Position numbers and translations under genes: made by a program. 64,000 nt of DNA. It comes from Octopus vulgaris (Eukaryota). The stretch is from assembly GCA_951406725.2 (NCBI GenBank), contig OX597827.1, forward strand, positions 36,828,001 to 36,892,000, read 5' to 3'. How positions within the stretch are numbered: the first letter of the stretch is position 1; every line of letters starts with the position of its first letter. Below the pieces are notes generated by a model. The model saw nothing but the letters and a program-made list of their open reading frames with translations, did not search any database and was not told the DNA's origin. Shown piece after piece: positions 4,272 through 64,000 of this stretch.

Positions 4272-4315
<44 letters not shown>

Positions 4316-4328
4316 ATTATATAGAAGG

Positions 4329-4379
4329 AGCTTCTACAGGACTAGTACTGTTTCATTCAAGAGAAATCTTCAGGAAGCT
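4329..4379 (-). ncRNA. Minimal type I hammerhead ribozyme (left-arm copy)
   Basis: Exact reverse complement of 10534-10584. Confidence 0.75.
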
Positions 4380-4798
4380 ATTTAACAAGAATTGTATTAG
4401 CATTTATACATTTAGGCAGGTTTAAAGGAGTGGTGGTGGGGGACTTTTTGGGGGTAGGCATAGCGCAAAATATCATACTTGGGGAGTGGTCAAGGAGTCA
4501 GTGGTAAGTTAGATGAAGGAATAGATAAATAAAAAAATAAAAAAATAAAAAATAAAAAAATAAAATAAAATAAAAAAATAAAATAAAAAAAGAAAAAAAT
4601 AAAAAATATAAAAAATATATATAAAAATATATATATATAAAATATATATATAAAAAAATATATATAAAAATATATATAAAAAAATATATATATAAAAAAA
4701 GGGGGGATAGAGTTATAGGTAAATAAGGAGATTCTCACTTATACCTATACACACATGTATACGTATCTACACACACATACATACATACACATATATAT

Positions 4799-4845
<47 letters not shown>

Positions 4846-5291
4846 CCTACACATACACACATACATACATACAAATATACATATACATATATATATATAC
4901 AATCCAATACAGGCCCATTCCCTAATTTTAATTTTATTATCTTCATTTATTACTTTTGTTATCTTTGATCGCTAGGGCTAAGAATCCTGGCAATGGCTGC
5001 ATGTCCATTTGTCTGTCTACTAGAAGGCAAGTACTCATTCCCGCACGCACACTCATTAGCACGTACATTCACCCATTCGTACACTCATACACATACACGT
5101 ACGCACGCGTTATATTCATACATACAAACATCTACATACGTTCACGTATATACACATACGTACTCGTACCTACAGATTCGTGTCTACACTTTAGGAGGCT
5201 AGTCTATACATATACACCAATATATATACATATATATATATATATACCCGCATATACATACACACACACACATATATACTCCTACATACAG

Positions 5292-5366
<75 letters not shown>

Positions 5367-5852
5367 CACATACACACATACATATACACACATACATACA
5401 CATATATATACATACACAAACATATATACACACATATATATATACATACACACATACACACATACATACGTATACATACATACATACATCCATACATCCA
5501 TACTTACATGCATTTATACGCATACACACACCCATCTATATATATGTATACATATATATATATATATATACACACTCACACATACATATACAAATCTACG
5601 CACACACATACATACATACACGTATACGCATACACGCACATACACATATACATGCGTACCCATACACGTGCACACACTCACGCGCATCCATATATATACA
5701 CACACACACATATATATACACGTGTGCAAGCATACATACATACTCATACGCGCACACATACTTACAAATACATATATGCACACACTTACACACATATATA
5801 TACATACACATATACATGCATACATACATATATGCATACATACACACACGCA

Positions 5853-5904
<52 letters not shown>

Positions 5905-5959
5905 TACATATATAGATATACATACACATACATACACATACACATACATACACACATAT

Positions 5960-6004
<45 letters not shown>

Positions 6005-6554
6005 TACATATATACACATATACATACATATACATACACACACACATACACATATATACACATATACATACATATACATACACACACACATACATATATA
6101 CATATACACTGATACACATACCCATACATACACATGCATATACTTATATCACTACATACTCACATATATAAACATATATACATATACACACATACATATA
6201 TACATGTACATACACATACGTATGCATATATATATATATACATATATATACACATATATATATATATATATACATACATACACACACACACACACATACA
6301 TATACACATATACATGTATACATACGCAAAAATGATACACATATATACACATACACACACACAGACAGATGCATATACATACATATATATATATAAACTA
6401 CATATCTATATAAATACATACATAATACACATATACACACACATATATATACATTCATGCATATACATATACAAGTATACATACACATACATACACACAC
6501 ACGCGCACACATACATATACACACACACATATACAAATACATACATACACACAT

Positions 6555-6595
<41 letters not shown>

Positions 6596-6963
6596 TACAT
6601 ACATGTACACATATACATATGTATATATATATCAACAAGGGAGGGTAAAGTTAATTAGTTATTAATCAATTTCATCAAGTGTTCAGTATGTAAAGGGACC
6701 ATTATTATTTTGAGTAAACAATGTTAGAGGGAAAAAATTCTCTAAGTAGTGGAAGAGGCTAAAAAACTTTATTGGCTGCTATTTCTAGAAAGTTTAGTAT
6801 GTGGCAAAGTAATTTATTTTATTTTCCTAAGCCCTAATTATATAATATTTTATACATACATACACATACATAAGCACATACATTTACACATACATATGCA
6901 TATACATATATACACATATACATACAAACACATATACACATATACACACACACACATACAAGC

Positions 6964-7008
<45 letters not shown>

Positions 7009-7257
7009 AATATATATACATATATATTTTTACATGCATACATACACACACACACACATAATACATGCGTATATTCCTACTGTACCCATGCATTTCTATA
7101 CATATATACATACATACGATACACATATACAAGCGTGCACATATAATATGTGAAAGGTCCTAGGAGAAAAGGTAATCGGGGGTGCTAGGGGAACAGTGGG
7201 GTTGGGGGGGGTTGGGGGGGGGGCTGTAGGGTGGGGGGTTGTAGGGGGGGGTTGTCA

Positions 7258-7467
7258 TCAATCAGGTTGCTGGGTAGGTCTATAGTTCTTGTAGTTCGCA
7301 TACTTCTTATGCATGCAATTTGGGGAGTGTTCTGAAAATTTGTTAAGGAGAGGGCCTTTGGCGAACAAGATCTCTAGGCTCTCTGATATGCATAGGTCAC
7401 AGCAGGTATGTCCTCCTGTGTACGAGCGCGCCTTCTGTAGTGGTTTCCACTTGGTCTTGAAGGGGAT
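7258..7467 (-). pseudogene. PLE GIY-YIG endonuclease C-terminal fragment (left-arm mirror)
   Basis: Minus strand reads IPFKTKWKPLQKARSYTGGHTCCDLCISESLEILFAKGPLLNKFSEHSPNCMHKKY...*. Confidence 0.7.
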
Positions 7468-7470
7468 TGA

Positions 7471-7680
7471 GTTCCTTTTAAGACCAAGTGGAAACTACTA
7501 CAGAAGGCGCGCTCGTACACAGGAGGACATACCTGCTGTGACCTATGCATATCAGAGAGCCTAGAGATCTTGTTCGCCAAAGGCCCTCTCCTTAACAAAT
7601 TTTCAGAACACTCCCCAAATTGCATGCATAAGAAGTATGCGAACTACAAGAACTATAGACCTACCCGGCAACCTGATTGA
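7471..7680 (+). pseudogene. PLE GIY-YIG endonuclease C-terminal fragment (not in the ORF track, no ATG)
   Basis: Hand translation VPFKTKWKLLQKARSYTGGHTCCDLCISESLEILFAKGPLLNKFSEHSPNCMHKKYANYKNYRPTRQPD*. The W..L..Y..C.LC..E..IL..LN..E..C.H pattern is also seen at 59748-59948. Confidence 0.75.
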
Positions 7681-7925
7681 TGACAACCCCCCCTACACCC
7701 CCCCCCCCTACAACCCCCCTACAACCCCCCAACCCCACTGTTCCCCTAGCACCCCCGATTACCTTTTCTCCTAGGACCTTTCACATATTATATGTGCACG
7801 CTTGTATATGTGTATCGTATGTATGTATATATGTATAGAAATGCATGGGTACAGTAGGAATATACGCATGTATTATGTGTGTGTGTGTGTATGTATGCAT
7901 GTAAAAATATATATGTATATATATT

Positions 7926-7971
<46 letters not shown>

Positions 7972-8340
7972 ATGTGCTTGTATGTGTGTGTGTGTGTATA
8001 TGTGTATATGTGTTTGTATGTATATGTGTATATATGTATATGCATATGTATGTGTAAATGTATGTGCTTATGTATGTGTATGTATGTATAAAATATTATA
8101 TAATTAGGGCTTAGAAAATAAAATAAATTACTTTGCCACATACTAAACTTTCTAGAAATAGCAGCCAATAAAGTTTTTTAGCCTCTTCCACTACTTAGAG
8201 AATTTTTTTCCCTCTAACATTGTTTACTCAAAATAATAATGGTCCCTTTACATACTGAACACTTGATGAAATTGATTAATAACTAATTAACTTTACCCTC
8301 CCTTGTTGATATATATATACATATGTATATGTGTACATGT

Positions 8341-8378
<38 letters not shown>

Positions 8379-8924
8379 ATGTGTGTATGTATGTATTTGT
8401 ATATGTGTGTGTGTATATGTATGTGTGCGCGTGTGTGTGTATGTATGTGTATGTATACTTGTATATGTATATGCATGAATGTATATATATGTGTGTGTAT
8501 ATGTGTATTATGTATGTATTTATATAGATATGTAGTTTATATATATATATGTATGTATATGCATCTGTCTGTGTGTGTGTATGTGTATATATGTGTATCA
8601 TTTTTGCGTATGTATACATGTATATGTGTATATGTATGTGTGTGTGTGTGTGTATGTATGTATATATATATATATGTGTATATATATGTATATATATATA
8701 TATGCATACGTATGTGTATGTACATGTATATATGTATGTGTGTATATGTATATATGTTTATATATGTGAGTATGTAGTGATATAAGTATATGCATGTGTA
8801 TGTATGGGTATGTGTATCAGTGTATATGTATATATGTATGTGTGTGTGTATGTATATGTATGTATATGTGTATATATGTGTATGTGTGTGTGTATGTATA
8901 TGTATGTATATGTGTATATATGTA

Positions 8925-8969
<45 letters not shown>

Positions 8970-9024
8970 ATATGTGTGTATGTATGTGTATGTGTATGTA
9001 TGTGTATGTATATCTATATATGTA

Positions 9025-9070
<46 letters not shown>

Positions 9071-9570
9071 TGCGTGTGTGTATGTATGCATATATGTATG
9101 TATGCATGTATATGTGTATGTATATATATGTGTGTAAGTGTGTGCATATATGTATTTGTAAGTATGTGTGCGCGTATGAGTATGTATGTATGCTTGCACA
9201 CGTGTATATATATGTGTGTGTGTGTATATATATGGATGCGCGTGAGTGTGTGCACGTGTATGGGTACGCATGTATATGTGTATGTGCGTGTATGCGTATA
9301 CGTGTATGTATGTATGTGTGTGCGTAGATTTGTATATGTATGTGTGAGTGTGTATATATATATATATATATGTATACATATATATAGATGGGTGTGTGTA
9401 TGCGTATAAATGCATGTAAGTATGGATGTATGGATGTATGTATGTATGTATACGTATGTATGTGTGTATGTGTGTATGTATATATATATGTGTGTATATA
9501 TGTTTGTGTATGTATATATATGTGTATGTATGTGTGTGTATATGTATGTGTGTATGTGTATGTATGTGTA

Positions 9571-9618
<48 letters not shown>

Positions 9619-10068
9619 TATGTATCTGTATGTAGGAGTATATATGTGTGTGTGTGTATGTATATGCGGGTATATATATATATATGTATATTTATTGGTG
9701 TATATGTATAGACTAGCCTCCTAAAGTGTAGACACGAATCTGTAGGTACGAGTACGTATGTGTATATACGTGAACGTATGTAGATGTTTGTATGTATGAA
9801 TATAACGCGTGCGTACGTGTATGTGTATGAGTGTACGAATGGGTGAATGTACGTGCTAATGAGTGTGCGTGCGGGAATGAGTACTTGCCTTCTAGTAGAC
9901 AGACAAATGGACATGCAGCCATTGCCAGGATTCTTAGCCCTAGCGATCAAAGATAACAAAAGTAATAAATGAAGATAATAAAATTAAAATTAGGAATGGG
10001 CCTGTATTGGATTGTATATATATATATGTATATGTATATTTGTATGTATGTATGTGTGTATGTGTAGG

Positions 10069-10115
<47 letters not shown>

Positions 10116-10533
10116 ATATATATGTGTATGTATGTATGTGTGTGTAGATACGTATACATGTGTGTATAGGTATAAGTGAGAATCTCCTTATTTACCTATA
10201 ACTCTATCCCCCCTTTTTTTATATATATATTTTTTTATATATATTTTTATATATATTTTTATATATATATATTTTATATATATATTTTTTTATATATATT
10301 TTTTATATTTTTTATTTTTTTCTTTTTTTATTTTATTTTTATTTTATTTTATTTTTTTATTTTTTATTTTTTTATTTTTTTATTTATCTATTCCTTCATC
10401 TAACTTACCACTGACTCCTTGACCACTCCCCCAAGTATGATATTTTGCGCTATGCCTACCCCCAAAAAGTCCCCCACCACCACTCCTTTAAACCTGCCTA
10501 AATGTATAAATGCTAATACAATTCTTGTTAAAT

Positions 10534-10584
10534 AGCTTCCTGAAGATTTCTCTTGAATGAAACAGTACTAGTCCTGTAGAAGCT
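10534..10584 (+). ncRNA. Minimal type I hammerhead ribozyme in PLE pLTR
   Basis: agcttc CTGAAGA tttctcttgaat GAAA cag-tactagtc-ctg TA gaagct. Stem I agcttc/gaagct, stem III cag/ctg, GUA cleavage triplet, palindromic ACTAGT in loop 3; stem II weak. Confidence 0.8.
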
Positions 10585-11209
10585 CCTTCTATATAATAAA
10601 TTAATTTTACTCTGCTATGTATTGAGTACCTTACTTACTGTGGTTAACCCCGAATCAACCCGGGACCTACATATATATATATATAGATAGATAGATAGAT
10701 TATATATATATATATATTTATTTATATCTACATGCATATATATGTATATAATTATATGTGCATAAATATACACATATCCATACACGTATTTGCTAGAAAC
10801 AAGTAGAAGAAGTACAATTACAAAAACCTTTCATTAAAAGGAAATAAAACATGAAAGGTCATTGGTTAGGTTGAGTTAAAGCAGTCCATGATCCTGTTCA
10901 TCTAACCATTTCTAAAATTATGTACGAGACCAGTTGAATGCACCAGTAAACATTTTTTGAAATATTTGGTGCTGAAAATCTCAGTCTTGTGGGTATTCTC
11001 TTATTAAGTTTTGTGTAATGTCTTGCTTTTAATTTCACTGCTAGTCTATCTTCTCCATACTGTTACTGTTTTGAATTAACTAATTGTGTATCATTCTCTC
11101 TGTAGCATTACAGATGCTTTTTTCTGTTAACTATATGTTTGGTTTTCAATGAGTTGTGAATCCTAATTCGGCTTCATCTTCTTTATTTTCGCAATGGAAA
11201 TTGAAGCTG

Positions 11210-11850
11210 TGATACTAGTGCTGGTGGCACATAAGAGAACTATCCGAATGTGGCCATTGCCAGCGCCGCCCCGACTGGCCTCTGTGCTGGTGGCACATAA
11301 AAAGCACCATCCGATTGTGGCCGTTGCCAGCCTCGTCTGGCCTCTGTGCTGGTGGCACATAAAAAGCACCATCCGATTGTGGCCGTTGCCAGCCTCATCT
11401 GGCCTCTGTGCTGGTGGCACATAAAAAGCACCATCTGATTGTGGCCGTTGCCAGCCTTGTCTGGCCTCTGTGCTGGTGGCACATAAAAAGCACCATCCGA
11501 TTGTGGCCGTTGCCAGCCTCGTCTGGCCTCTGTGCTGGTGGCACATAAAAAGCACCATCTGATTGTGGCCGTTGCCAGCCTCGTCTGGCCTCTGTGCTGG
11601 TGGCACATAAAAAGCACCATCCGATTGTGGCTGTTGTCAGCCTCGTCTGGCCTCCGTGCCAGTGGCATATAAAAAGCACCCACTACACTCACGGAGTGGT
11701 TGGCGTTAGGAAGGGCATCCAGCTGTAGAAACTCTGCCAGATCAGACTGGGCCTGGCGCAGCCTTCTGGCTTCCCAGACCCCAGTTGAACTGTCCAACCC
11801 ATGCTAGCATGAAAAACGGACATTAAACGATAATGATGATGATGATGATT
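11210..11850 (+). repeat. RTE-3'UTR/SINE-type element containing a 62-bp tandem array (about 8 units, 11218-11680)
   Basis: Unit tctgtgctggtggcacataaaaagcaccatccgattgtggccgttgccagcctcgtctggcc starts at 11281, 11343, 11405, etc. It ends in ...gacattaaacgat(GAT)n. Related copies at 33400-33840, 36575-36770(-), 49760-50120 and 58573-58880. Confidence 0.8.
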
Positions 11851-12788: not shown

Positions 12789-13270
12789 GAGTGAGAGAGC
12801 AGTGCATGCCATCAAAGTGACACTGGGGTAAAATATACAATGCCTAATATACCCATCATGACTACCCGTCTGATAAGGGTACACTAGGCACATGCATCAC
12901 AACCATATGTGCACCACATAGTGATCTCATATCAAGATAAACAGCACATGTCCTTGCAGGTGGGGCCCAGTTAGCATTTTCTTCTGGTCAAGTAACCCAT
13001 CCTGCTCAAAAGTTCCTTGAATAAGGGTTATTTAAGGATGTTGAACAAAACATCCATGTTTCCAGAGGTGAATTATTCAAACCTCAGGGAATCCCTCTCA
13101 ACACATGGCTAAGATGCCCCCCCCTACTTTTGATCGTGATCAGAGATGCACATATCGTCAGCCACTAAGGGACATGGTCAACTGGTTAAGGTCAAACAAC
13201 TGACATGCAAATCTGTAGTATTGAGCTGAATATTTGCTGTAGCCCATCTTTTATACCAAGACAAGCATAC
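12787..13270 (-). repeat. Dispersed ~480-bp repeat with (TAA)n tail, probably a retroposon 3' end
   Basis: Clearly homologous to 62625-63110; both abut (TTA)n. Confidence 0.65.
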
Positions 13271-13463: not shown

Positions 13464-13522
<59 letters not shown>

Positions 13523-13676
13523 ATAATGATAATAATAATAATAATAATAATAACGTAATAATAATAATGTACTAATAATAATAATGTAATAATAATAATA
13601 ATAATAATGTAATAATAATAATGTAATAATAATAATGTACTAATAATAATAATGTAATAATAATAATGTAATAATA
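13444..13676. repeat. Compound (ACT)n/(AAT)n microsatellite
   Basis: Seen directly; it abuts the 5'-truncated LINE. Confidence 0.9.
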
Positions 13677-15270
13677 AGTATCTGGGTATTTAGGAGTGTG
13701 ACAAAATCAAGGAGAGTTAGATGGAAGAAAGCTTTAGGCAAGAATACTTCAGAAGAACCAAATTAATTATGGAGAATAAACTCAATGAAAAGAACAAGAT
13801 CAGGGCAGTGAATACATGGGCTGTCTCCTTAATGTGATATGATGCAGGTGTTGTTAAGTGGGCAAAGAATGAGCTTAAGGAAATGGATAGAAAAACCATG
13901 AAAATGATGACAATGAACAAGGAACTGCACCCCAAAAAGTGAAATTTGTAGACTGTATGTGCATAGATACAAGGTAGGAAGAGGTCTCATGAGATGCAAG
14001 ATGTGTGTTGACAGTAAGTAAAACAACAGATTGAACTTTTGGTTGTTGCTGTTAGAAATAGCAACAGATTACCCAGTGAAAATGTGACACACCCAAAAAA
14101 CATTTAAGAAACGAGATAGAGAACAAAAATTAAACAACTGGAAAGTGAAAGTGAAAGTGATGCATGGGCAATACCTCAGAAAAATGGAAAGGAAAGACAA
14201 GACTAATACTTGGAAGTGGCTAAGGAAAAGTGTTCTGAAAGGATACACTGAGGTATTGATATGCAATGCTCAAGAACAAGCACTGAGAAGTAATTACACC
14301 AAGTTCCAAATAGATAAGAGCAATGAATCACTCCTTTGTAGAATGTGGGGCAGCAAAAACAAAACAATTTCACATATTGTGAGTGAGTGTAGTAAACTGA
14401 CTCAAAAGGAATATAAAAGGAGGTATGATAACATAACAATTGCAGCGTGGAAGGTGTTTGTAAGCCATTTAAGAAACACACAAAAGCCGTTCGATTCACT
14501 TCAACATATAAGTTTAATTTGTCAAAATATTTTCGTCGCTTAATTTGATTTGTCAAACTTAAATGTTGAAGTGAATCGAATGGCTTTTGTGTGTTTCTTA
14601 AATGGCTTACAAACACCTTCCACGCTGCAATTGTTTTCGTTTCAGCACACGATCTCAGATCAAATCACTTGCTATGCAAGTACATCTCCGTAATATGATA
14701 ACATAGCTGTGAGTAAGTTTGTTCACTGGAGACTGTGTGAGAAGTATAGTCTTGAAAGAACACAGAAATGGTATGAACATGAACCAAGAGGCATCACTGA
14801 GAATAATGAGTATAAGATCTTATGGGATTTTGCAATCCAGTGTGATTCAGTGTTTGTTGCTGTGGATAAAAAGGAAGAAGGAAACCAAGATCGTAGATAT
14901 TGCCATACCTGGGAATGCACAAATTAGTGACAAAGAACTGGATAAGATTGAAAATTACAAGCTACCAAATGACGAAATTACATGAATGTGGGCCATGAAC
15001 AGAGTAACTGTCTTCTCAGTGGTTGTTGGGGCACTGGGAGCATTAGCAAGCAAGTTTGAGAAATATGTTGACAAAATTGGAATTGGTATGGGAGTAGAAC
15101 ACACTCAAAAAACTGCATTATGGGGGATAGCTAGGATCTTGAGATTGGCACTTGGGTATTAAGTATCATAGAAAGAGACCTTGTGAGACCATTGACAAAA
15201 GGTTGCTGTCTACTCATACAGAGATAGCTGGAGCAAGGAAAATTGGGAGCTCTGAGAAGTGAAATAGAAA
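13677..15270 (+). mobile_element. R4/Dong-clade non-LTR retrotransposon, 5'-truncated and decayed
   Basis: KYLGI, KIRAVNTWAVS, MDRKTMKMMTMNKELHPK, HGQYLR..QEQAL..CRMWG..TISHIVSEC, ILWDFAIQCD, VDIAIP, VVVGALG: RT C-terminus, CCHC and REL motifs. Flanked by AAT repeats. Confidence 0.8.
14436..14693. mobile_element. 258-bp foldback-plus-tail insertion with 12-bp TSD, probably PLE pLTR-derived
   Basis: TATGATAACATA at 14424-14435 and 14694-14705. Inverted arms 14436-~14515 and ~14554-14634; tail 14635-14693. Confidence 0.8.
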
Positions 15271-15602
15271 TGATAATAACAACAGTAATAATAATTTCTA
15301 ACACAGCTCAGGGCCACAAATTTGGATAGGGGCAACATCGGATTATATTGATTTAATACTTGACTGGTATTTTATTTTATTGAACCTAAAGGATGAAAAA
15401 TAAACTTGGCTTTGGTAGGATTTGAACTGAGACTGTAAAGAGCCAGAACATATACTGCAGAATTGTTCAATCTGAATTAGAACTCACATTTAAAACCAAT
15501 TAAGAAAGAGAGATGTAAGACAAACTGGACTCTCTAGCAGGACAATAAAATAATACTGAAAGAATTTTGTCAATAATAGAAGCTATCCCAATGTTAATAA
15601 TA

Positions 15603-22032: not shown

Positions 22033-22455
22033 TCTCTTATTCTTTTGCTTGTTTCAGTCATTTGACTGCAGCCATGCTGGGGCACTGCCTTGAAGAATTT
22101 TAATTGAACAAATCAACTCCAGGACTTATTTTTTTTGAAGCCTAGTACTTATTCTATCAACATCTTTTGCTGAACCACTAAGTCATGGGTGCATAAACAT
22201 ACAGACACCAGTTGTGAAGTGGTGATGGAGGGACAAACACATACACAAAGACACACACACATATAGATATATACATATACACATATATATAACGGGCTTC
22301 TTTCAGTTTCTGTCTACCAAATCCACTCACAAGGCTTTGGTTAGCCTGAGGCTATAGTGGACGACACTTGCCCTGGGTGCCATGCAGTCGGACTAAACCC
22401 AGAACCATGTGGTTGAGAAGTAAACCTCTTACCATACAGTTACATCTATGCCTGT
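22030..22455 (-). mobile_element. tRNA-headed SINE family B
   Basis: Reverse-complement homologue of 31287-31690. Confidence 0.7.
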
Positions 22456-22697
22456 AAATATTAACTTTTTACTTCAGTCATTGGACTGTGACCATGCTGG
22501 GGCACAACCTTGAAAGTTTTAGTGCTTCTGTGTTGGTGATCTGCTAAGTTAAAGAGACATAAACAAGCCTACACAGGTTATTAAACCAGGAGGGACAAAA
22601 ACACAGACATGTAAAAACGCATGCACACACATAAACATGTATATATGATTACTTTGTAACTTCTGCTGATTAAATATGGTAATAATAATTCTTTATA

Positions 22698-27240: not shown

Positions 27241-29230
27241 TACCTTTCTTCTTATTTGTATCATTTAAAAAGCAACAGGTATTGAGGGCATTGAAATCTC
27301 TTCAATGACAGTGTTTGTTGTAGTTTCAAAATGCCACAGCTAGGGATACAGCTTGATGGGAAGAGGTACACACATATGTGTGTGAGTGAGTGTGTGTGTG
27401 TGTGTGTGTATGTGTGTGTGTGCACGTGCACATATATTATATTAATATTCTTTGTGTTGCTAGATTTTAATTTCAAAGCCTGCATTTGCAGCGTGATTTT
27501 TATTCCATATTATATTACAAATATCATTTGTGATACCTGTATACTGAATGTGTTTACTTATGTTATCAAGACTATCCCATTGTGAATGCTCAAAGTTTTA
27601 GGCATTTGACAGTTCTGTTCTGGTGGTAAAGAGAAGATGGAATGACGAAGATAAAAGAATGAGAGAAATAATCTTGCTTGAGTCTAGTATGTGTAGGCTT
27701 TTTGTTCTCTGATGTTTTGACACCTGGTTTTACTTCTCTCCTTTCCACCAAAGCATCAAGCAAAAGTAGTTTTATTTTCTTTTTCCAGGTTAAACTGGAT
27801 TGATACAGTGGATTTATGTGGCTGACAACAACTTCAATGTCAGCTTGATATTGTTATAGCATAAACATATCCAGAAATTTATACTGAGTTTTCTACTGTG
27901 ACTACTAAAACCTGTAATCCTTGGAGCAAATTTGTCTTTGTGCCATTCTTTTCAAATAACAATTAGCAAACATGTCTCACCCCCCCCCCCCCTACACTAA
28001 CAAACCGAGTATTCTTCTGAATGATTGGAATGTGATTGTGCTACCAGATCAGAGTTGACCTAGACTTAAACAACAGATCTGAGGCCTCTGTCTCATAGAA
28101 TTAACCATTTATCTCCATCTTTTAGTTAAGGCTTTATTGTGGAAGATTGATAGTTGCCCTTGCATGCAAACCTACTCTCTTTCAATATCAACTATACAAC
28201 TTAGCATTGGAATTGTTGTTGGTATTGTGACCAGAATACAAAGGACCAGAACAAATGCCACAAAGTATATTATCTGCTGCTTTAATAGTTCTGCCAATCC
28301 ACTGCCCTGAATTAGTATTTTTTTAAAAATCAACCTTGAAAAGATGAAAAACTAAGTTGACCTTGGTGGTATTTATAACTAGAGACAGAGAGTTGAGATA
28401 AATAGTGAATGGCATTCTATCCAAAGGTTTAATGATTCTGCCAATTTGTCATCTTTCAATTAAATGACAACAACTAAATGCAGTCTTCATTACTATAGTT
28501 AAGGAAAAGAAAGACTTAATGCAAACATAGAAAGAGATGGTAATGCTACTGGGGTAGATAAGGTGTTGAATCCCCCATAACCTCACTAACAGTTTTATTC
28601 AATCCTTTCTTCCCAGAACATCTGTCCTTTAGTTTCCTCCTTGCACTTGTCTTTCATACAGGCACCAATTAGGAACAGTCGAAGTAAAATGTCCAAAGTA
28701 TAAATCTGACCAGGCTTGAAGAGCCTGTGAAGGCCATGGGGAAAGCCTTTTCCTCTTGATGAAGATAATGATAATTTAAAAAATCTGCAAGCTTCTTTGT
28801 TGTAGCTTCCAGAGCCAAGTATTTTATAGAATCTGTCAAAAATTCTTGGAAAGATAAAAGGTAAGATTGTTATGAAGAAGCTACAGCTGGGCAGTATCAT
28901 CATATTTCTATGATTAGGCAGGGTTAATGGCACTCTGTTGATGGGTAACATAGAATAAATAATACAATGACAAAGTGAGGATTCTTGTGAATGCTTCTGA
29001 TAGATAGTCTGGAGATGTGATGTGAATTAACAACAACAACAACAACAATGATGATGATGACAATGAAAACACACATTGATGTGATGTTGTAATTGTTAAA
29101 GCTGAACACAAAAAAATAATATGAAGATAGAGAAAAGGAATATTAATGGAAAAGATTAAGAGAAATGAATTGTACTGAAAATAAGAAGCTGGAGATGTGA
29201 TGTGAATTAACAACAACAACAACAACAATA

Positions 29231-29731
<501 letters not shown>

Positions 29732-30788: not shown

Positions 30789-31286
30789 TCTACCTTGGAT
30801 ATCCTTGTTGCTTATTTTGATTATAATCACCCCATTTGATTTATATGGATAATACCATACAAAATTCTGGTGCCTTTAAATTAAGTACCATATTCATCTG
30901 AATCTAAATTTTGCTGAACTTATATATATATATATCAATTATCCCACCTCATCATCAACAGACAAGACAGGCAGGTACAAAAAAAAAAGTAGAACTTCTT
31001 TATGGTGTAGGAAATTTGCATAAATGAAATGAAAATGAGCTAAGAGAAATAACTAAGAATAGCCAGTAACAGGCATTTATAAAGCAGATAAAAAGAAGGG
31101 TATATTAAATAAAATACAAGATAAACTCTTGTATTATTGAAATTATTTCCACTTCCAGAGAGAGTAGACCAAGTGCTTCATGGCATTTGGCATGCCAAGT
31201 TCAAATGAGTAGGAAAGATAATCTAAAGAATCAAAAATTCTCAAAAACTAACATGCCATTTAGGAAAAAAAATCAAATCACATTGA

Positions 31287-31690
31287 AGTGGCTGTGTGGT
31301 AAGTAGCTTGTTTATCAACCACATGGTTCCAGGTTCAGCCCCATTGTGTGGCACCTTGGGCAAGTGTCTTCTACTATAGCTTCTGGTCGACCAAAGCCTT
31401 GTGAGTGGATTTGGTAGACGGAAACTGAAAGAAGCCAGTCGTATATATGTATATATATATATATATATGTGTGTGTGCATATGTTTATGTGTCTGTGTTT
31501 GTTCCCCCAATATCACTTGACAACCGATGCTGGTGTGTTTATGTCGCCGTAACTTAGTGGTTCGGCAACAGAGACCGATAGAATAAGTACTAGGCTTACA
31601 AAGAATAAGTCCTGGGGTCGATTTGCTCGACTAAAGATGGTGCTCCAGCATGGCCGCAGTCAAATGACAGGAACAAGTAAAAGAGTAATT
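31287..31690 (+). mobile_element. tRNA-headed SINE family B
   Basis: A-box-like gtggctgtgtggtaag, B-box-like ggttcagccc, core ccttgggcaagtgtcttctactatagc, internal TA/TG tract, tail aaagagtaa. Confidence 0.8.
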
Positions 31691-32640: not shown

Positions 32641-33045
32641 GGCATGGCTGTGTGGTAAGAAGCTTGCTTCCCAACCACATAGTTCTAGGTTCAGTTCCAT
32701 TGCATAGCACCTTGGGCAAGATCTTCTACTACAGCTTCGGGCCAACCAAAGTCTTGTGAGTGGATTTGGTAGATGGAAACTGAAAGAAGCCTGTCGTATA
32801 TATATATATATATATATATGCGTGTGTGTATGTATGTTTGTATATGTATATATTTGTGTGTTTGGTCTGTATTTGTCCCTCCATTATCACTTAACAACTG
32901 ATCTTGGTGTGTTTACGTCCCTGTAACATAGCAGTTTGGCAAAAGAGACTGATAGAATAAGGCCAGGGGTCAATTTCTTTGACTAAAAGGCGGTACTTCA
33001 GCATGGCATCAGTCAAAATGACTGAAAGAAGTAGAAGAGTAAAGA

Positions 33046-33149: not shown

Positions 33150-33840
33150 AAAAAGAGAAATGTGGGGCATAAGGGACATCAGATGTTTGGTCATGTGTTG
33201 CATATGAAGGAGGACAGTTGTGCAAAGAAGTACCAATCTCTAACTGTGGAGGGAACCTGCGGTAGAGGTAGACCCAGGAAGACATGGGATGAGGTTGTGA
33301 AGTGTGATCTTTGAACATTGGGCCTCACAGAGGCAATGGCTAGTGGCCAAAACCTTTGGTGATATGCCATGCTTGAGAAGACCCATCAAGTCAAGTGAAA
33401 TACTAATCATGGCTGATGCTGGTATCACATAAATGGCACCTGTGCCAGTGACATGTAAAAAGCACCTTTCAAATATTAGGTCTTATGGAGATAATATGGC
33501 TGATGCCGGTGGCATGTAAAAAACACCTTTTGAGCATTGGACCTCATAAAGGCAGCGACAAATGATCAAGACCTTTGGCAATATGCTGTACTGGAGAAGG
33601 AGACCCATTGAGCCAAGTGAAATCATAGCTGTGACAGGTACTGGTGTCACACAACTTGCACCTGTGCTTGTGTCATGTAACTGTCATTTACACTCTTGGA
33701 GTGGTTGATGTTAGGAAGGGCATCCAGCCGTAGACACCATATTAAATCAAACTGGAGTCTGGTGTAGCCCCCTCGGCTTGCAGCCCTGCTCAAACTGTCC
33801 AACCCATGCCAGCATAGACAACAGACATTAAATGATGATG
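33150..33840 (+). mobile_element. RTE-clade LINE 3' end with repeat-bearing 3' UTR and (GAT)n tail
   Basis: FGHVLHMKEDSCAKK..VEGTCGRGRPRKTWDEVV..DL, followed by gcatgtaaaaagcacc repeats and the same tail as 11680-11850. Confidence 0.75.
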
Positions 33841-36562: not shown

Positions 36563-37974
36563 GCTATCATCATCATCATCGTTTAACGTCTGTTTTCCAT
36601 GCTAGCACGGGTTGGACAGTTCAACCAGGGTCTGGGAAGCCAGGAGGCTGCACCAGGCTCCAGTCTGATCTGGCAGTGTTTCTATAGCTGGATGCCCTTC
36701 CTAATGCCAACCACGTGAGTGTAGTGGGTGCTTTTTACGTGCTACCGGCACAGGTGCCAGGGGAGGCAGGTACCTACCATCTGTCTCTCTGTCTATCGAT
36801 CTCCTTGTCTGTGTGAATGTATGTATATAAATCACTTAATATATTTTGCTATGGACACAGATATAATAAAATCTTTAATAGAATCTCATTTAAAATTAGC
36901 TATTGTTGTAAAATCTATTAAGCAGTGTAAAGGTATAAAGTGCTCTGATGTTAATATCAATACTTCTACATGTAATTATGTGAAGCCTCAACAACAACCT
37001 CTTTATTGATAGTTGTTGGTCTGTGAGATTATGTAAAGTATGAGGGTGCAAAATGACAACAATCCAATATCAAAGATTTACTCTGGATTGATGGACAAAA
37101 TATATTTATATGTGATTTTACTAGTGTAAGAATTCTTTAAATAGTCAGATAAAATGTTTTCTCTGTGTCTAAGTATATTTGGCTTTTAAAACAATGTAGC
37201 TCTGCACCTTTTAAGGTATACTTGCTTATCTTAGAATACATGTTCGTCCATGCAGGCATGGCTCCCAGCATGCCTGTGCATGGTGTACTTTGTGCTTCAG
37301 TAAAGATTCTTCCTTATATTCAGAACTAATTGGATTTTGAATGGAAAAGGTGAATTATTAAATTCTTGCAGGTATTTCTTGAGATTCTTGTGTTGTAATC
37401 TAATACTTTGCAATAATGAAATACATATAAGTACTATATTGAACAGTCCCATTGAAATGCATATTAAATGATTTTAAATGATACTTTGACCGACTAATTT
37501 TATACCTCGGTTTGAAAATTTTTTACTATTTTCTATTTTCTCATATTTTCCGTAATCAACGGAACATTTTTAATTTCCTGATTTGACAAACTCTTACCCT
37601 TTATGCTGTGAAACTCTCTGTTTTAGAATAGCTCTCTCCCTTGTAATTAATAAAATATTTTACATCTATTGAAAAAAATTAATTTACATACTTTAAAATA
37701 AATTCATCTGAAGAATTTGAAATATTCTAGGCAAGGTCTCACTTCTTTACCTATAACTATATTTTCTAAGTAGTATATATTTGTCAACTCATGCACATAT
37801 TTACCTATATACACCCATGTTAGCTTACGTATGTACCTGTGTATATGTTTGTGTAATATACATTGTAGCATTTATTTTTATATATTTCTATCTTCTATTT
37901 TTAACATATTTTCTTTGCTTATTCAATGTTTTTTCACATGCACATGCATGCTCTCTCTCTCTCTCTCTCTCTCC

Positions 37975-49759: not shown

Positions 49760-50117
49760 TGCATGCCGGTAGCACGTAAAAGCACCATCCGTTCGTGTCC
49801 ATTGCCAGCCTCGCCTGGCCCTCGTGCCGTTGGCATGTAAAAGCACCATCCGCTTGTGTCCGTTGCCAGCCTCGCCTGGCCCCCGTGCCGGTGGCACGTA
49901 AAAACACCATCCGTTTGTGGCCGTTTGCCAGCTCTGTTTGGCACCTGTGCAGGTGGCACGTAAAAAGCACCCACTACACTCACGGAGTGGTTGGCGTTAG
50001 GAAGGGCATCCAGCCGTAGAAACACTGCCAAATCTGACTGGGCCTGATGAAGCCTTCCGGCTTCACAGACCCCAGTTAAACCGTCCAACTCATGCTAGCA
50101 TGGAAAACGGACGCTAA

Positions 50118-50150
<33 letters not shown>
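49760..50150 (+). repeat. RTE-3'UTR/SINE-type element with ~4 internal units
   Basis: Same units and tail as 11210-11850. Confidence 0.75.
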
Positions 50151-50191
<41 letters not shown>

Positions 50192-50429
50192 CCGAATTTC
50201 TATATATATATATATATATATATTATAAGGCAGTGCCCCAGCATGGTTGCAGTCTAATGACTGAAACAAGTAAAAGATAATAAATAAACAAAATAATGTG
50301 CATATCAGTGAAGATGTAGTGGTGTGGTAAGAAGTTTGCTTCTCAACCACATGACTCTGGGTTCAGCCCCACTGTGTGGTACCTTAGGCAAGTGTCTTCT
50401 ACTATAGCCCTAAGCTGACCAAAATCCAT

Positions 50430-50842
50430 ATCTCTTTACTCTTTTACTCTTTTTACTTGTTTCAGTCATTTGACTGCGGCCATGCTGGAACACCGCCTGT
50501 AGTCGGGCAAATTGACCCCGGGAATTATTCTTTGTAAGCCCAGTACTTATTCTATCGGTCTCTTTTGCTGAACCGCTAAGTGATGGGGATGTAAACACAC
50601 CAGCATCGGTTGTCAAGCAATGCTAGGGGGACAAACACAGACACACAAACATACACACACACATATATATATATACATATATACGACAGGCTTCTTTCAG
50701 TTTCCCATCTACCAAATCCACTCACAAGGCATTGGTCGGCCCGAGGCTATAGCAGAAGACACTTGCCCAAGATGCAAAGCAGTGGGACTGAACCCGGAAC
50801 CATGTGGTTGGTAAGCAAGCTACTTACCACACAGCCAGTCCT
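50430..50842 (-). mobile_element. tRNA-headed SINE family B, full length
   Basis: Reverse-complement homologue of 31287-31690; flanked by further SINE fragments. Confidence 0.8.
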
Positions 50843-51827
50843 GCACCTATATGACTGAATTTGGTTGATGGAAACTGAAAGAAGCCTATCATAAGTGTGT
50901 GTGTGTGTGATAGCCTTCTGTAAAGTTTCCATCTTCCAAAAGCATTCATTGGACGTTATGAGGAAGACATTTGCCCAAAATGCCCCACAGTGGGATTGAA
51001 TTCTTAAACACCTAGGTGGGAAACAAACTTCTTAACTACACACCCATATCTGTGCCAAATATATCATCATCATAAGCAGCAGTATTTCACATCTGTGTTC
51101 CATGCTGACCTGCACTGGATGGTTTGAAAGGATCCAATGTCTCCAGTGTGTAATTTGGCATGGTTCCTATGGTTGCATACCCTTCCTAACACCAACCACT
51201 TTACAACATGTACTGGATGCTTTTTTGTGCCACCCACTAACGAGGTCGCCATGCAGTTCATGAAACTACAAATTCTGAGGAGTGGACTGAGTGAGAATGA
51301 TTGAGTGGGGCTGGAAAGAGATAGATTTGGTAATGAGGCATCCCGATGGCATCACAAGATATGAGGTGAGATAGAAGTGAATGGAGACAGAGGAATTAGC
51401 AGTATGCTGATTAGGGGCAGGTTGCAAGAGAGTATGGGGGAGCAAGAGATGAGGGAATTGGTGAGAGGAAGGGAGCTAAGTAAAGATTAGGTCAGGTTGA
51501 AAAGTGGATGTAGGGAATGGTTGATAAGAATCAGAGGATGGTAAATAATGCAGGAATTGGGGAAGGTAGAGTGATAGGGGATGATCAATGCTGCTTGGGT
51601 TGAGAAAGATATAGGGATGCAGAAAAGAGCAAGGTGGGATCATCAGGACAGTAGTAAAGATACAGCTGACAAGGATAGGATAAAGATAAAGATGACAGGT
51701 GGTTGGGTAGTCTGCAGGGTGGGAGATACAGATATAGATAGATAGATAGTTAGATAGACAAACAGACAGACAGACAGACAGATAGATAAATAGATAGATA
51801 GATAGATAGGTAGAGAGATAGAGATAG

Positions 51828-56582: not shown

Positions 56583-58572
56583 TTAAATCAAAGTGCTGTG
56601 GAGTAGGATTGAACTGGAAACCATGTAGTTATGATGCAAACTTTTTAATTACATTACAATGTCTGCATCTTGAAACATAGTCACCCAACATGAGAAAACT
56701 ATTCTGAATACATCAGTAAACTACAGTGTATAATACTCGTATAATACTGATATATATATCATTATTCTGCAGTATATAATACTGGTATACTGATGTATGT
56801 GTGTGTGTATATGTATGTGTCTGTGTGTGTATATATGTGTGTACGTATGTATATATGTATGTATGCTGCAGTGCATAATACTGATATATATATATATATA
56901 TATATATATGTTATACACTCGTATATGTATTCTGTGATTTATTAACAACTGACATTTATGTAGCTAGCAACATTAATTCATTTGTAATAGTTATATTTAA
57001 TTTTATCATGAGAGTAGAGTGTAGTTAATTGAATTAACTAACCTCTATACTTAAGTACTTTTCACTCCATTTCATTCCCATTGCAAAAATAAAAAGTCAA
57101 ATGAAACTAGTTGGATATGGAGACAGGATATTTTAACCATTTTGCAGTTTAGTCTGAGAGCAAAGGCAATGACCATCAACTTTTATTTAGAGTTCCCAAC
57201 ACTGCTGAATAGAAGAAACCATAATCTATGAATTGCAGTGTTCAGGAGCAGTAGATCAATCTGGTCTGAATAATTGCAACAGAGTGAGCTTTGTTAAAGT
57301 CCTCTGCCTAAAATCCAGGTAGCAGTGTAAAACCAGGCATTAAATTCAGTCAACACTCATGATTAAGATATATGCCATTGCAAGGTGACATAGCTAAATA
57401 TTAACCCTCTCTTAGTTGCACCATCTTTGTATATGATGACAACAACAAAAACAAGAATAAGAATAAGAATAAGAATAAGAAGACGAAGAAGAAGAAGAAG
57501 AAGAAGAAGAAGAAGAAGAAGAAGAAGAAGAAGAAGAAGAAGAACAACAACAACAACAACAACAACAACAATAATAATAGTAGTTAGTGTGAGAGGAAAT
57601 AACACCATATTAAACATTTATTTTAGGCCAATAGTTATTTCTACTTTTGGTAGACTTGATAGACTATTATTTCTTCAGTTTGGTATGCTGCTGCTGCTAC
57701 AACAACAACTACTGCTGCTGCTGCTAGATACAGTTGCTGGAGATTATTGAATTACTACAATAGCTGCTTTGTAAAATTGATAATATGAAAATAATCTTGG
57801 AGGAGTTTTGAAGGAAAATGAATTGGTTTTAGCAAGAATAAAGATTTCTTCCTGGGAGGTAACACACACGCACATGCACATATGCACACAAGCATGGCTT
57901 GGGGTGTCACACATAAATGGATAAATATATATAGTAATTGTTTATGTTTTCACGCCAAAAAAATACAAACATGACTGAAAAACATACAAAAAGTATTTTG
58001 GTCTTCTGACTAAATAGAAAATAAGATAACATAGTCTTTCATATGTAATAAAACAAGTGATGGTTGTGCATAGAACTAATGCAGGGAAGAAGAAATGAGC
58101 TAATTGTTGAAATAATGGTCATTGAACAGAAAAAAGCAGAGGTAGAAGTAAGCCAATATGAAATGTAGCTGGGGAAGATTGAAAACAGGATGAAAAGAAA
58201 AACTAGGGAAATTAGGCAGGACTGAATCCTGCATGTGTTGGTGTTAAGGACCAAAAAGGAAGAAATTAAGTAGAAAGGTCAATGAAAACTTATGATGCAC
58301 ACATAAATATAATCTTTTATCCTTTACTTGTTTTGGTCATTAGACTGTGGCCACTCTGGGGCTTTACCTTGAAGAATTTTTTGTCAAATGAATCGACCCC
58401 AGCATATGTTTTTTTAAGCCTATACACTGTAAAATGGTTGGTGTTAAGAGACCTTGCCAAAGCAGACACTGGAGTTCAATGCAGTCCTCTGGCTCATTAG
58501 CTCCTGTTAAATGATCCAACCCAAGCCTAAATGATGATGATAGTGATGATGATTTTATATGTATATATATAT

Positions 58573-58900
58573 GTGCTGGTGGCACGTAAAAAGCACCATC
58601 CGAATGTGGCCGATGCCAGCGCCGCCTTGACTGGCTTCTGTGCTGGTGGCACGTAAAAAGCACCAACCGATCGTGGCCAATGCCAGCCTCCCCTGGCACC
58701 TGTGCCGGTGGCACGTAAAAAGCACCCACTACACTCACGGAGTGGTTGGTGTTAGGAAGGGCATCCAGCTGTAGAAACACTGCCAGATCAGACTGGAGCC
58801 TGGTACAGCCTCCTGGCTTCCCAGACCCGGGTCGAACTGTCCAACCCATGCTAGCACGGAAAACGGACGTTAAACGATGATGATGAGGATGATGATGAAA
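58573..58900 (+). repeat. RTE-3'UTR/SINE-type element with 3 internal units
   Basis: Same units and tail as 11210-11850. Confidence 0.75.
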
Positions 58901-62624: not shown

Positions 62625-63110
62625 ATTGAGTGAGAAAGCAGTGCATGACATCAAAGTGACTCTGGGTTAAAATATACAAAGCCCAGTATACCCATCATGA
62701 TTACCTGTCTGATAAGGTTACACCAGACACATGCATCACAACCATATGTGCACGACATAGTGATCTTATATCAAGATAAACAGTGCATGAATTTGCAGGT
62801 GGTGCCTTGTTAGAATTTTCTTCAGGTTGAGTTGCCCATCCTGCTCAAAAGGTCCCTGAATAAGGATTGTTTAAGGATGTTGAATGAAAAACCCATGTAT
62901 CCAAAGGTGAATTATTCAAACTCCTAAGAATTCCTCTCAACACATGACTATGATGCTCCCCCACTACTTCTGCTCGTAATCAGAGATGCACATATCATCA
63001 GCCACTAAGGGACATGATCAACTGGTTATGGTCAAACAACTGACAAGCAAAACTGTGGTATTGAGTAGAATATTTGCTGTTGCCCATTTTTTATACCAAG
63101 ACAAAACAAT
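62625..63110 (-). repeat. Second copy of the ~480-bp repeat at 12787-13270
   Basis: Direct sequence similarity over the full length. Confidence 0.7.
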
Positions 63111-63240: not shown

Positions 63241-64000
63241 AGGCAGTGAGCTGGCAGAATCGTTAGTCTACTGAACAAAATGCTTAACAGTATTTCACCT
63301 GTCGCTATGTTCTGAGTTCAAATTCCACCACTTTGCAGCAAAGTTTGAAACCATTATTATCATTATCATTATTATTATCATTATTATTATTATTGAAGAC
63401 GTCCCACAGTATCCAATATCGTGATGTTGTGGATTGATGATATTATGTCTACTAGGGATTTTTACTGGCTGTCAAGTCACAACAAGGACCTCAAACAGAC
63501 AGTACTTTACACAGTATGCGTCCAGTTCCAAGTAAAGCTGATTTATGCAACACACCTAGATTACAGGGTATTTCTAAAGCTTCCAGACATTTCTTCAAGC
63601 TGGGTGGTTTTGAACCCAATTCTCCGATGCCACATCTTGCAGCTGCCACATCTTGGCGATTTCAATTCTCAAATCTCCATATTTATCAATCTTTTCTTTT
63701 TCTTTCATGAAAATATGTCCTAGGGTCAATTTCTTCGACTAAGGGGTGGTGCTCCAGCATGGCCACTGTAAAATGACTGAAACAAGTAAAAGAATAAAAG
63801 AATACCAGAAAAACGTTCCATACCACTAAACCAAGAAGGTCCTTTGAATATGTACGATGTATTTTAAGGCTAAATAGTGATTCCATTTATGTTTGTGTAA
63901 CTGAGATATTTTGGCTGGATTATATAGTCATTGGTGTTACATTACACTCTGTATTCTACAACTACCATAATATACTTTTCTAGGCCTGACATTTTTGTGG

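Follow-up and report, generated by a model that had tools for sequence, protein, structure and literature searches.

A 258-bp foldback insert with a one-sided tail in an Octopus vulgaris LINE probably arose by PLE-type insertion and reaches into a predicted hammerhead with a swapped core

In the analysed stretch of Octopus vulgaris DNA (64 kb, hereafter the window), the decayed 3' part of a LINE is interrupted by a 258-bp insert that consists of two inverted copies of one sequence and a tail on one side only. We consider it highly probable that this insert represents one retrotransposition event by PLE machinery, which brought in no more than the terminal ~140 nt of a high-copy family of PLE type. 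The tail-less copy runs upstream into the 3' half of a predicted hammerhead ribozyme, and contigs from public sequencing runs supply the other half. More tentatively, and as a possible rather than a probable reading, we propose that this very high-copy animal family has fixed a swapped G3-C8 core, with an extra G after A9 and with U17, which would still cleave and would be undescribed. The inserted copy is dead, having no ORF and half a ribozyme, and its architecture is ordinary, a clean instance of a described pattern. The features are listed in Table 1.

Table 1. Features of the insert, its target site, the host LINE and the 6.3-kb palindrome (positions in the 64-kb window)
Feature	Position	Strand	Remarks
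6.3-kb palindrome, head-to-head PLE 3' end (very likely)	4313..10669	+	arms 4313-10600, tail about 10601-10669 (~69 nt), in (AT)n
Host: decayed LINE 3' part	13680..15295 (approximate)	+	between TAA-type repeats
Left TSD copy	14424..14435	+	near-palindrome, 10/12 bases self-complementary, TAT at 5' end of both strands
Tail-less inverted element-end copy, 5'-truncated	14436..14541	-	106 nt
Left foldback arm	14436..14515	-	80 bp
Type I minimal hammerhead, 3' half (predicted)	14518..14541	-	window sequence; pairing partners in loose-end consensus
Junction filler, locus-specific	14542..14554	.	13 nt; shuffle test, low family depth
Right arm = sense tail-bearing copy	14555..14634	+	80 bp
One-sided tail = family 3' end	14635..14693	+	59 bp; depth like arms
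Right TSD copy	14694..14705	+	exact repeat of left 12-mer

The 12-mer that encloses the insert (14436-14693) occurs exactly twice in the 64-kb window, and the repeat grows on neither side. At the base composition of the LINE, two given ends would have an exact 12-bp repeat no more than 5 bp away by chance with a probability of about 3e-5. Self-complementarity at 10/12 bases and TAT ends are found in 4 and 1 of the 1205 12-mers of the LINE, respectively, the target included, and were noticed post hoc. The foldback arms match at 78 of their 80 positions, with mismatches at 14489/14581 and 14508/14562. The fold z-score was -23.5 for the minus strand as RNA and -23.0 for the plus strand as DNA, and in both cases none of 200 shuffles folded equally well. 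Two small hairpins are predicted in the tail. These results agree with the first-pass annotation, which had described a perfect 12-bp duplication around a 258-bp insert with ~80-bp inverted arms and a 59-bp one-sided tail.

Neither of the two copies contains the other, and the tail-less copy reaches 26 nt farther upstream than the tail-bearing copy, into the hammerhead. The sequence between the arms had been taken as one spacer, but it falls into two parts: 14516-14541 is family sequence of the tail-less copy, and 14542-14554 is filler specific to this locus. The filler is templated. Across the junction 14540-14557, positions 14540-14547 copy 14514-14521 (8 nt) and positions 14548-14557 copy 14517-14526 (10 nt), the last 3 bases belonging also to the right copy; 2 of 5000 shuffles were as good.

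The insert was found in public sequencing runs in 21 of the 24 rows listed, in 19 of them with at least half of the sampled words; these runs came from 11 studies, mainly of three coded organisms. Contigs of four runs (X1, X2, X4 and X6) were mapped on 14300-14850 at 85% likeness. X1, X2 and X4 are DNA-like runs, the RNA nature of X6 is a guess, and run X20, a marine metatranscriptome (share 0.11), was left out of the mapping. The mapping rows listed (15 of 87 joints, 24 of 1116 loose ends, 40 of 151 variants and 32 of 38,643 pieces) were read for presence only. Summed contig depth, which is not a copy number and allows the term very high copy relative to the LINE flanks and to single contigs (about 20-70x for individual listed contigs in X1 and X2), was 0.7-4.0 million over the arm and tail bins of X1, X2 and X4 versus 0.1-22 thousand over the LINE flanks. 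The depth of the tail equalled that of the arms, indicating that the tail is part of the element. The inner half of the right arm was shallower because contigs matching both arms were divided between them, and the bin 14547-14565, which holds filler, was ~20- to 40-fold shallower than the arm bins.

Loose ends clustered before 14433-14439 and behind 14693-14696 and continued in sequence that was unrelated or (AT)n, indicating that both outer boundaries are common to the family. The exact duplication lies at both of these boundaries, and the claim of a real insertion with a target-site duplication was borne out. Among the joints listed, arm-to-arm joints at other loci connected 14534 with 14588, 14541 with 14617 and 14541 with 14615, with short fillers where shown. 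The arm joints therefore differ between loci, indicating that the centre is formed anew at each insertion. Several family sites were polymorphic at about 45-57% among the variants listed, indicating subfamilies, and the two arms agree in their letter at each of the four arm sites that were listed as strongly polymorphic (14486, 14492, 14512 and 14610). The change at 14508 is private, the other letter accounting for 97% of summed depth in X1. We also observed a family variant with a 40-nt duplication within the tail (14639-14678 joint; depth 418 in X2 and 40 in X4), given which the tail length may differ by subfamily. An exact 28-nt pattern taken from the spacer and arm matched no locus in contigs from metagenomes, genomes and viruses. 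The family of the insert may already be present in a published repeat library.

TAA-type repeats flank the host LINE fragment at 13470-13680 and about 15275-15300. Repeats of this type are typical of Dong/R4 elements, and zinc-knuckle and restriction-like endonuclease motifs suggest a clade that we take to be Dong/R4. Recent activity in O. vulgaris is reported for Dong-R4 (PMC13282606). When the insert was removed, a single continuous frame ran across the junction. The left flank aligned with residues 861-969 of P0105, a 1125-aa RT protein, at 66% identity, and the right flank with residues 966-1014 at 51% identity; 57 of 81 candidates were homologues of the left LINE frame, many with an RT domain. 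A search of the ESM Atlas with the LINE returned unnamed eukaryotic clusters, and a PDB search returned nothing useful. The proposal that removal of the insert restores the LINE frame holds at the junction but not beyond it, where the LINE is broken by many other stops and frameshifts.

A 267-nt contig joins 14423 directly to 14694, skipping 270 positions with 12 bases that fit both sides, and was present at 34x in X1 and 60x in X2. It showed 6 differences in 156 positions and no gap, whereas the remaining LINE pieces listed, which mostly begin at 14714 or later, had 13-19 differences. Being gapless over the flanks, it shares the small surplus of the locus over P0105. This contig is probably the orthologous or allelic empty site, and possibly a close paralogue. 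No contig across the flank-insert junction of the filled allele was found among those listed (15 of 87 joints and 32 of 38,643 pieces). The identity of the duplication (12/12) and the 2 differences in 80 arm positions indicate that the insertion is young.

We then consider the hammerhead, using criteria from PMC4209133 and PMC3088659. On the minus strand, the window holds the 3' strand of stem II (14539-14535), G12-A13-A14-A15.1 (14534-14531), a palindromic hexamer (14531-14526), U17 (14525) and the 3' strand of stem I (14524-14518), with a predicted cut at 14525|14524. This half is incomplete and cannot fold by itself, and its 11-mer at 14534-14524, which occurred in 14 of 100 shuffles, is weak alone. 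Contigs continuing behind 14541 (92, 80, 77 and 21) gave a near-identical 30-letter consensus in all four runs, with an agreement of 0.75-0.85; the 5' half is thus a per-position consensus of contig ends (median 12-28 nt), not of single full copies. On the minus strand, the core of this consensus is G3-U4-G5-A6-A7-C8-A9, with one extra G between 9 and 10.1. Paired by eye, not by folding, the consensus and the window form a 7-bp stem I and a 5-bp stem II that is closed by G10.1-C11.1 and carries a 9-nt loop; U4-G5-A6 and A9 are in register, and stem III is palindromic.

The pairing partners in the consensus and the motif at 14534-14524 substantiate the suggestion that the minus strand of the spacer resembles the 3' half of a minimal hammerhead. 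Longer copies had been expected to extend to a CUGANGA core, and they do run into the missing half, but its core is G3-U-G-A-A-C8-A. The C3-U4-G5-A6-N7-G8-A9 core is therefore not matched at G3 and C8, while the Watson-Crick 3-8 pair is retained. G12-A13-A14-A15.1, U16.1, H17 and the core-closing stems I and II, as paired by eye, are present, and the H17 consensus admits U (PMC3088659). An Rfam search (E<=5) returned no hammerhead among the best 150 of 268 matches, all of which were microsatellite-driven miRNA or snoRNA hits below gathering scores. A strict scan that allowed any Watson-Crick 3-8 pair found no complete hammerhead in the 64-kb window. With a looser pattern, the canonical core appeared in both arms of the 6.3-kb palindrome and in one other place in the window, together with seven G3-C8-like strings, none of which was accepted by the strict scan.

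Minimal type I hammerheads of PLE pseudo-LTRs are described with an extra base between 9 and 10.1, a G10.1-C11.1 pair and a palindrome in the 15.2-16.2 region without a stable stem III, on the sense strand and with the site shortly upstream of the tail (PMC4209133), and the predicted hammerhead of the insert family is alike in all these traits. It differs in the 3-8 pair, which is G-C versus the C-G and natural U-A of that source, and in its U at 17, 7-bp stem I and 5-bp stem II. Natural U3-A8 variants are reported (PMC4209133, PMC3088659). In Poseidon PAc of Anolis, the hammerhead contains the start of the ORF and has a C3-G8 core; G3-C8 is there an engineered double mutant that partly restores cleavage (PMC11167929). 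A G3-C8 mutant is also reported to be more active with G17 than with C17 (PMC3884650, its data not displayed), which would suggest why the family has U17: this base may prevent a G3-C17 mispair. A natural G3-C8 hammerhead was not found in the literature searched, which did not include Lunse et al. on PLE hammerhead variants. Since minimal PLE hammerheads are described as working weakly and as dimers (PMC4209133), the predicted hammerhead in the source RNA is most likely a weak, dimeric or protein-assisted cutter. The single insertion has little weight as a clean example of a known pattern, and the possibly new part is the swapped-core hammerhead. Should the G3-C8 core cleave, whole abundant families would escape hammerhead searches that require C3-G8, and some PLEs reported to lack canonical hammerheads may merit re-examination.

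In its architecture the insert behaves like an insertion of an endonuclease-bearing PLE, of which it is a probable member. An inverted, 5'-truncated copy lies at the 5' end, with other centres at other loci; the tail is one-sided, with fixed family boundaries and 59 bp; the duplication is short (12 bp here), with (AT)n flanks in other copies; and the hammerhead is on the sense strand, its 3' half in the window and its 5' half in the consensus of 4/4 runs. PLE insertions are described as having a tail of 30-40 bp and an inverted copy that is 5'-truncated (PMC8557442), and Pen2a has a 31-bp tail and a 9-bp TSD (PMC3846280). Insertions of endonuclease-bearing PLEs (Penelope/Poseidon, Neptune, Nematis and Naiad; PMC3846280, PMC8557442) share with the insert the head-to-head copies, one-sided tail, short duplication, heavy 5' truncation and (TA)n bias. 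Compared with these published insertions, the tail is longer (59 bp versus 30-40) and so is the duplication (12 bp versus 8-10), and both copies are reduced to about 100-140 nt with no ORF linked. The first-pass annotation had regarded the insert as showing that this architecture arises by endonucleolytic insertion; the insertion is real, but these sources had reported such an architecture for PLEs before, with 8-10-bp duplications.

We found no RT or GIY-YIG ORF within the 258-bp insert, and the PLE ORF that the first-pass annotation expected in longer copies was not linked to the family, which the loose ends extend by 30 letters. In 14555-14693 (+), two frames are open through the tail: a 44-codon frame (14559-14690) that stops exactly at the family 3' end, and another of ~30 codons from ATG. 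Pfam, the ESM Atlas and a protein word search gave no homologue of the 44-codon frame. This result fits the most serious alternative, which we regard as a real but minority possibility, namely that the family itself is ORF-less, a short non-autonomous hammerhead unit (derived from a PLE pseudo-LTR and resembling a retrozyme or SINE) that PLE protein mobilises in trans. In that case the insertion chemistry would be unchanged and the source RNA alone would differ. The very high depth relative to the LINE and the sites polymorphic at about 45-57% speak for such a unit, as do a proposal that animal retrozymes derive from PLE pLTRs (bioRxiv 10.64898/2026.07.22.740005) and a report that PLE pLTRs are sufficient for mobilisation in trans (PMC3846280). 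Animal non-LTR retrozymes resemble the insert family in being short, non-coding and PLE-related and in having a type I hammerhead, but they are defined as head-to-tail tandem units with complete hammerheads (bioRxiv 10.64898/2026.07.22.740005), and the locus holds an inverted, truncated head-to-head pair with half a hammerhead. Moreover, autonomous PLEs too leave mostly 5'-truncated ends (PMC8557442). In O. vulgaris, 30 recently active Penelope families with 329 insertions are reported, in a main text that does not mention ribozymes (PMC13282606), which fits a PLE-type origin of the insert.

Under the preferred reading of one PLE-driven event, a GIY-YIG endonuclease, probably as a dimer, would nick both strands 12 nt apart at the near-palindromic TAT...ATA site, which would mimic the (AT)n targets of the family. 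Each 3'-OH would then prime reverse transcription on element RNA, one at the tail end and the other 59 nt upstream, and both cDNAs would halt early, after about 139 and 106 nt. Host alternative end-joining would seal the ends head to head, leaving the 13-nt templated filler, and gap filling would yield the 12-bp duplication. A purified PLE protein cuts and extends both DNA strands, prefers AT-rich DNA, is a predicted dimer and starts at two RNA sites bracketing the tail (PMC11167929), and the filler resembles the short templated repeats of polymerase-theta end-joining (PMC2895639). The insert is comparable to Poseidon PAc in vitro (PMC11167929) in its two putative reverse-transcription starts that define the tail, its AT-rich target and the presumed cutting of both strands. 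The hammerhead cut precedes the proximal start by 85-92 nt in PAc (PMC11167929), and the predicted cut of the insert family does so by 89 nt; the corresponding distance of 22 nt in the 6.3-kb element indicates that this spacing is not general.

Each copy holds sequence that its partner lacks, 26 nt in the case of the tail-less one, and thus neither was simply copied from its partner. Together with the locally templated centre, this favours two separately primed cDNAs joined by end-joining. Two priming events appear to be the simplest reading, although a single cDNA that folded on itself and was then resected would give the same end product. We consider this snap-back route, in which one cDNA of the same element primes and copies itself and later resection shortens one arm, rather unlikely. 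Self-priming has been proposed for PLE palindromes (PMC3846280), and the identical letters at 14486, 14492, 14512 and 14610 indicate that both arms came from one source copy or subfamily, which is compatible with either two priming or snap-back. Against snap-back, the tail-less arm carries sequence missing from the tail-bearing copy, tail-less ends fall within 7 bp across many loci, as for a second start site, and the centre is filler copied from the tail-less arm and not the loop of a tail-bearing copy. If two-site priming is correct, the many young foldback insertions of the family would document, in vivo, priming at two sites and on two strands and the end-joining that follows. A family of this abundance, with short insertions in unique sequence, makes PLE inversion and tail formation directly testable from genome data.

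A very unlikely alternative is that a LINE enzyme inserted a SINE-like RNA by twin priming, which would account for a 5' inversion and for a 12-bp duplication, a length within the LINE range. Twin priming inverts a separate stretch of the RNA that lies farther upstream, whereas in the insert 80 bp are duplicated. Although several LINE clades are reported active in O. vulgaris (PMC13282606), the insert has no poly(A) or LINE-like 3' end, and its hammerhead shows PLE-type traits. A MITE with 80-bp terminal inverted repeats and an unrelated neighbour as the tail would account for the near-perfect long inverted arms, the duplication and the high copy number, but it was ruled out by outer boundaries that are both shared and a centre that differs between loci among the joints listed, as well as by a duplication that encloses the tail, a tail depth equal to that of the arms and the continuation of the family into a hammerhead; the first-pass view that the insert is not a symmetric TIR element was therefore upheld. 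Equally far-fetched is an assembly or library foldback artefact, for although the empty form was seen in two runs and the contigs listed include none over the filled junction, the exact duplication at both family boundaries, the two arm differences and the templated filler all speak against it, as do comparable joints at further loci, seen in three organisms.

The 6.3-kb palindrome is very likely biological, as judged from its own predicted anatomy of a PLE endonuclease end, hammerhead core and tail. The frame 7474-7680 corresponds to an endonuclease C-terminus, with 98 protein matches at E<=0.001 in a HMMER search, and the protein word search with the palindrome ORF gave no match. In an alignment of this frame with 8 of these proteins, P0029 contains what we take to be RT motifs, a cysteine linker, a GIY-YIG-type core and C-terminal Cys/His residues. 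Pfam GIY-YIG was matched in 1 of 10 homologues tested, below the cut-off (E 0.0016). The putative cysteine linker points to Neptune or Nematis (PMC8557442). Positions 10540-10563 and their counterpart in the mirror arm hold a canonical hammerhead core, with a weak 3-bp stem II, and the 3' UTR is laden with microsatellites. A blastn search of the insert against the window returned only the insert itself and its own inverse, indicating that the palindrome belongs to a different PLE family. The support that the insert had been thought to lend to a biological palindrome is thus by analogy only, as the two have no detectable sequence in common. At the palindrome centre (7457-7482), the arms differ at 5 of the 11 innermost pairs and at only 2 of 207 pairs outside; this centre may be filler or may reflect two slightly different templates.

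Other repeats were also observed in the window, whose host genome is rich in microsatellites. A dispersed SINE-like repeat occurs at 11218-11831, 49764-50122, 58572-58878, 36578-36770 and 33655-33836; the family ends at a GAT-type microsatellite at 11831, and the copy at 11218-11680 contains a tandem run of ~62-bp units. Another dispersed repeat of 477 bp is present in two copies that are 87% identical (12789-13264 and 62628-63104). Further dispersed repeat fragments lie in both orientations at 22033-22521, 31281-31688, 32645-33043, 50227-50890 and 63712-63804, and a pure (GAT)n microsatellite of roughly 500 bp is located at about 29230-29730.
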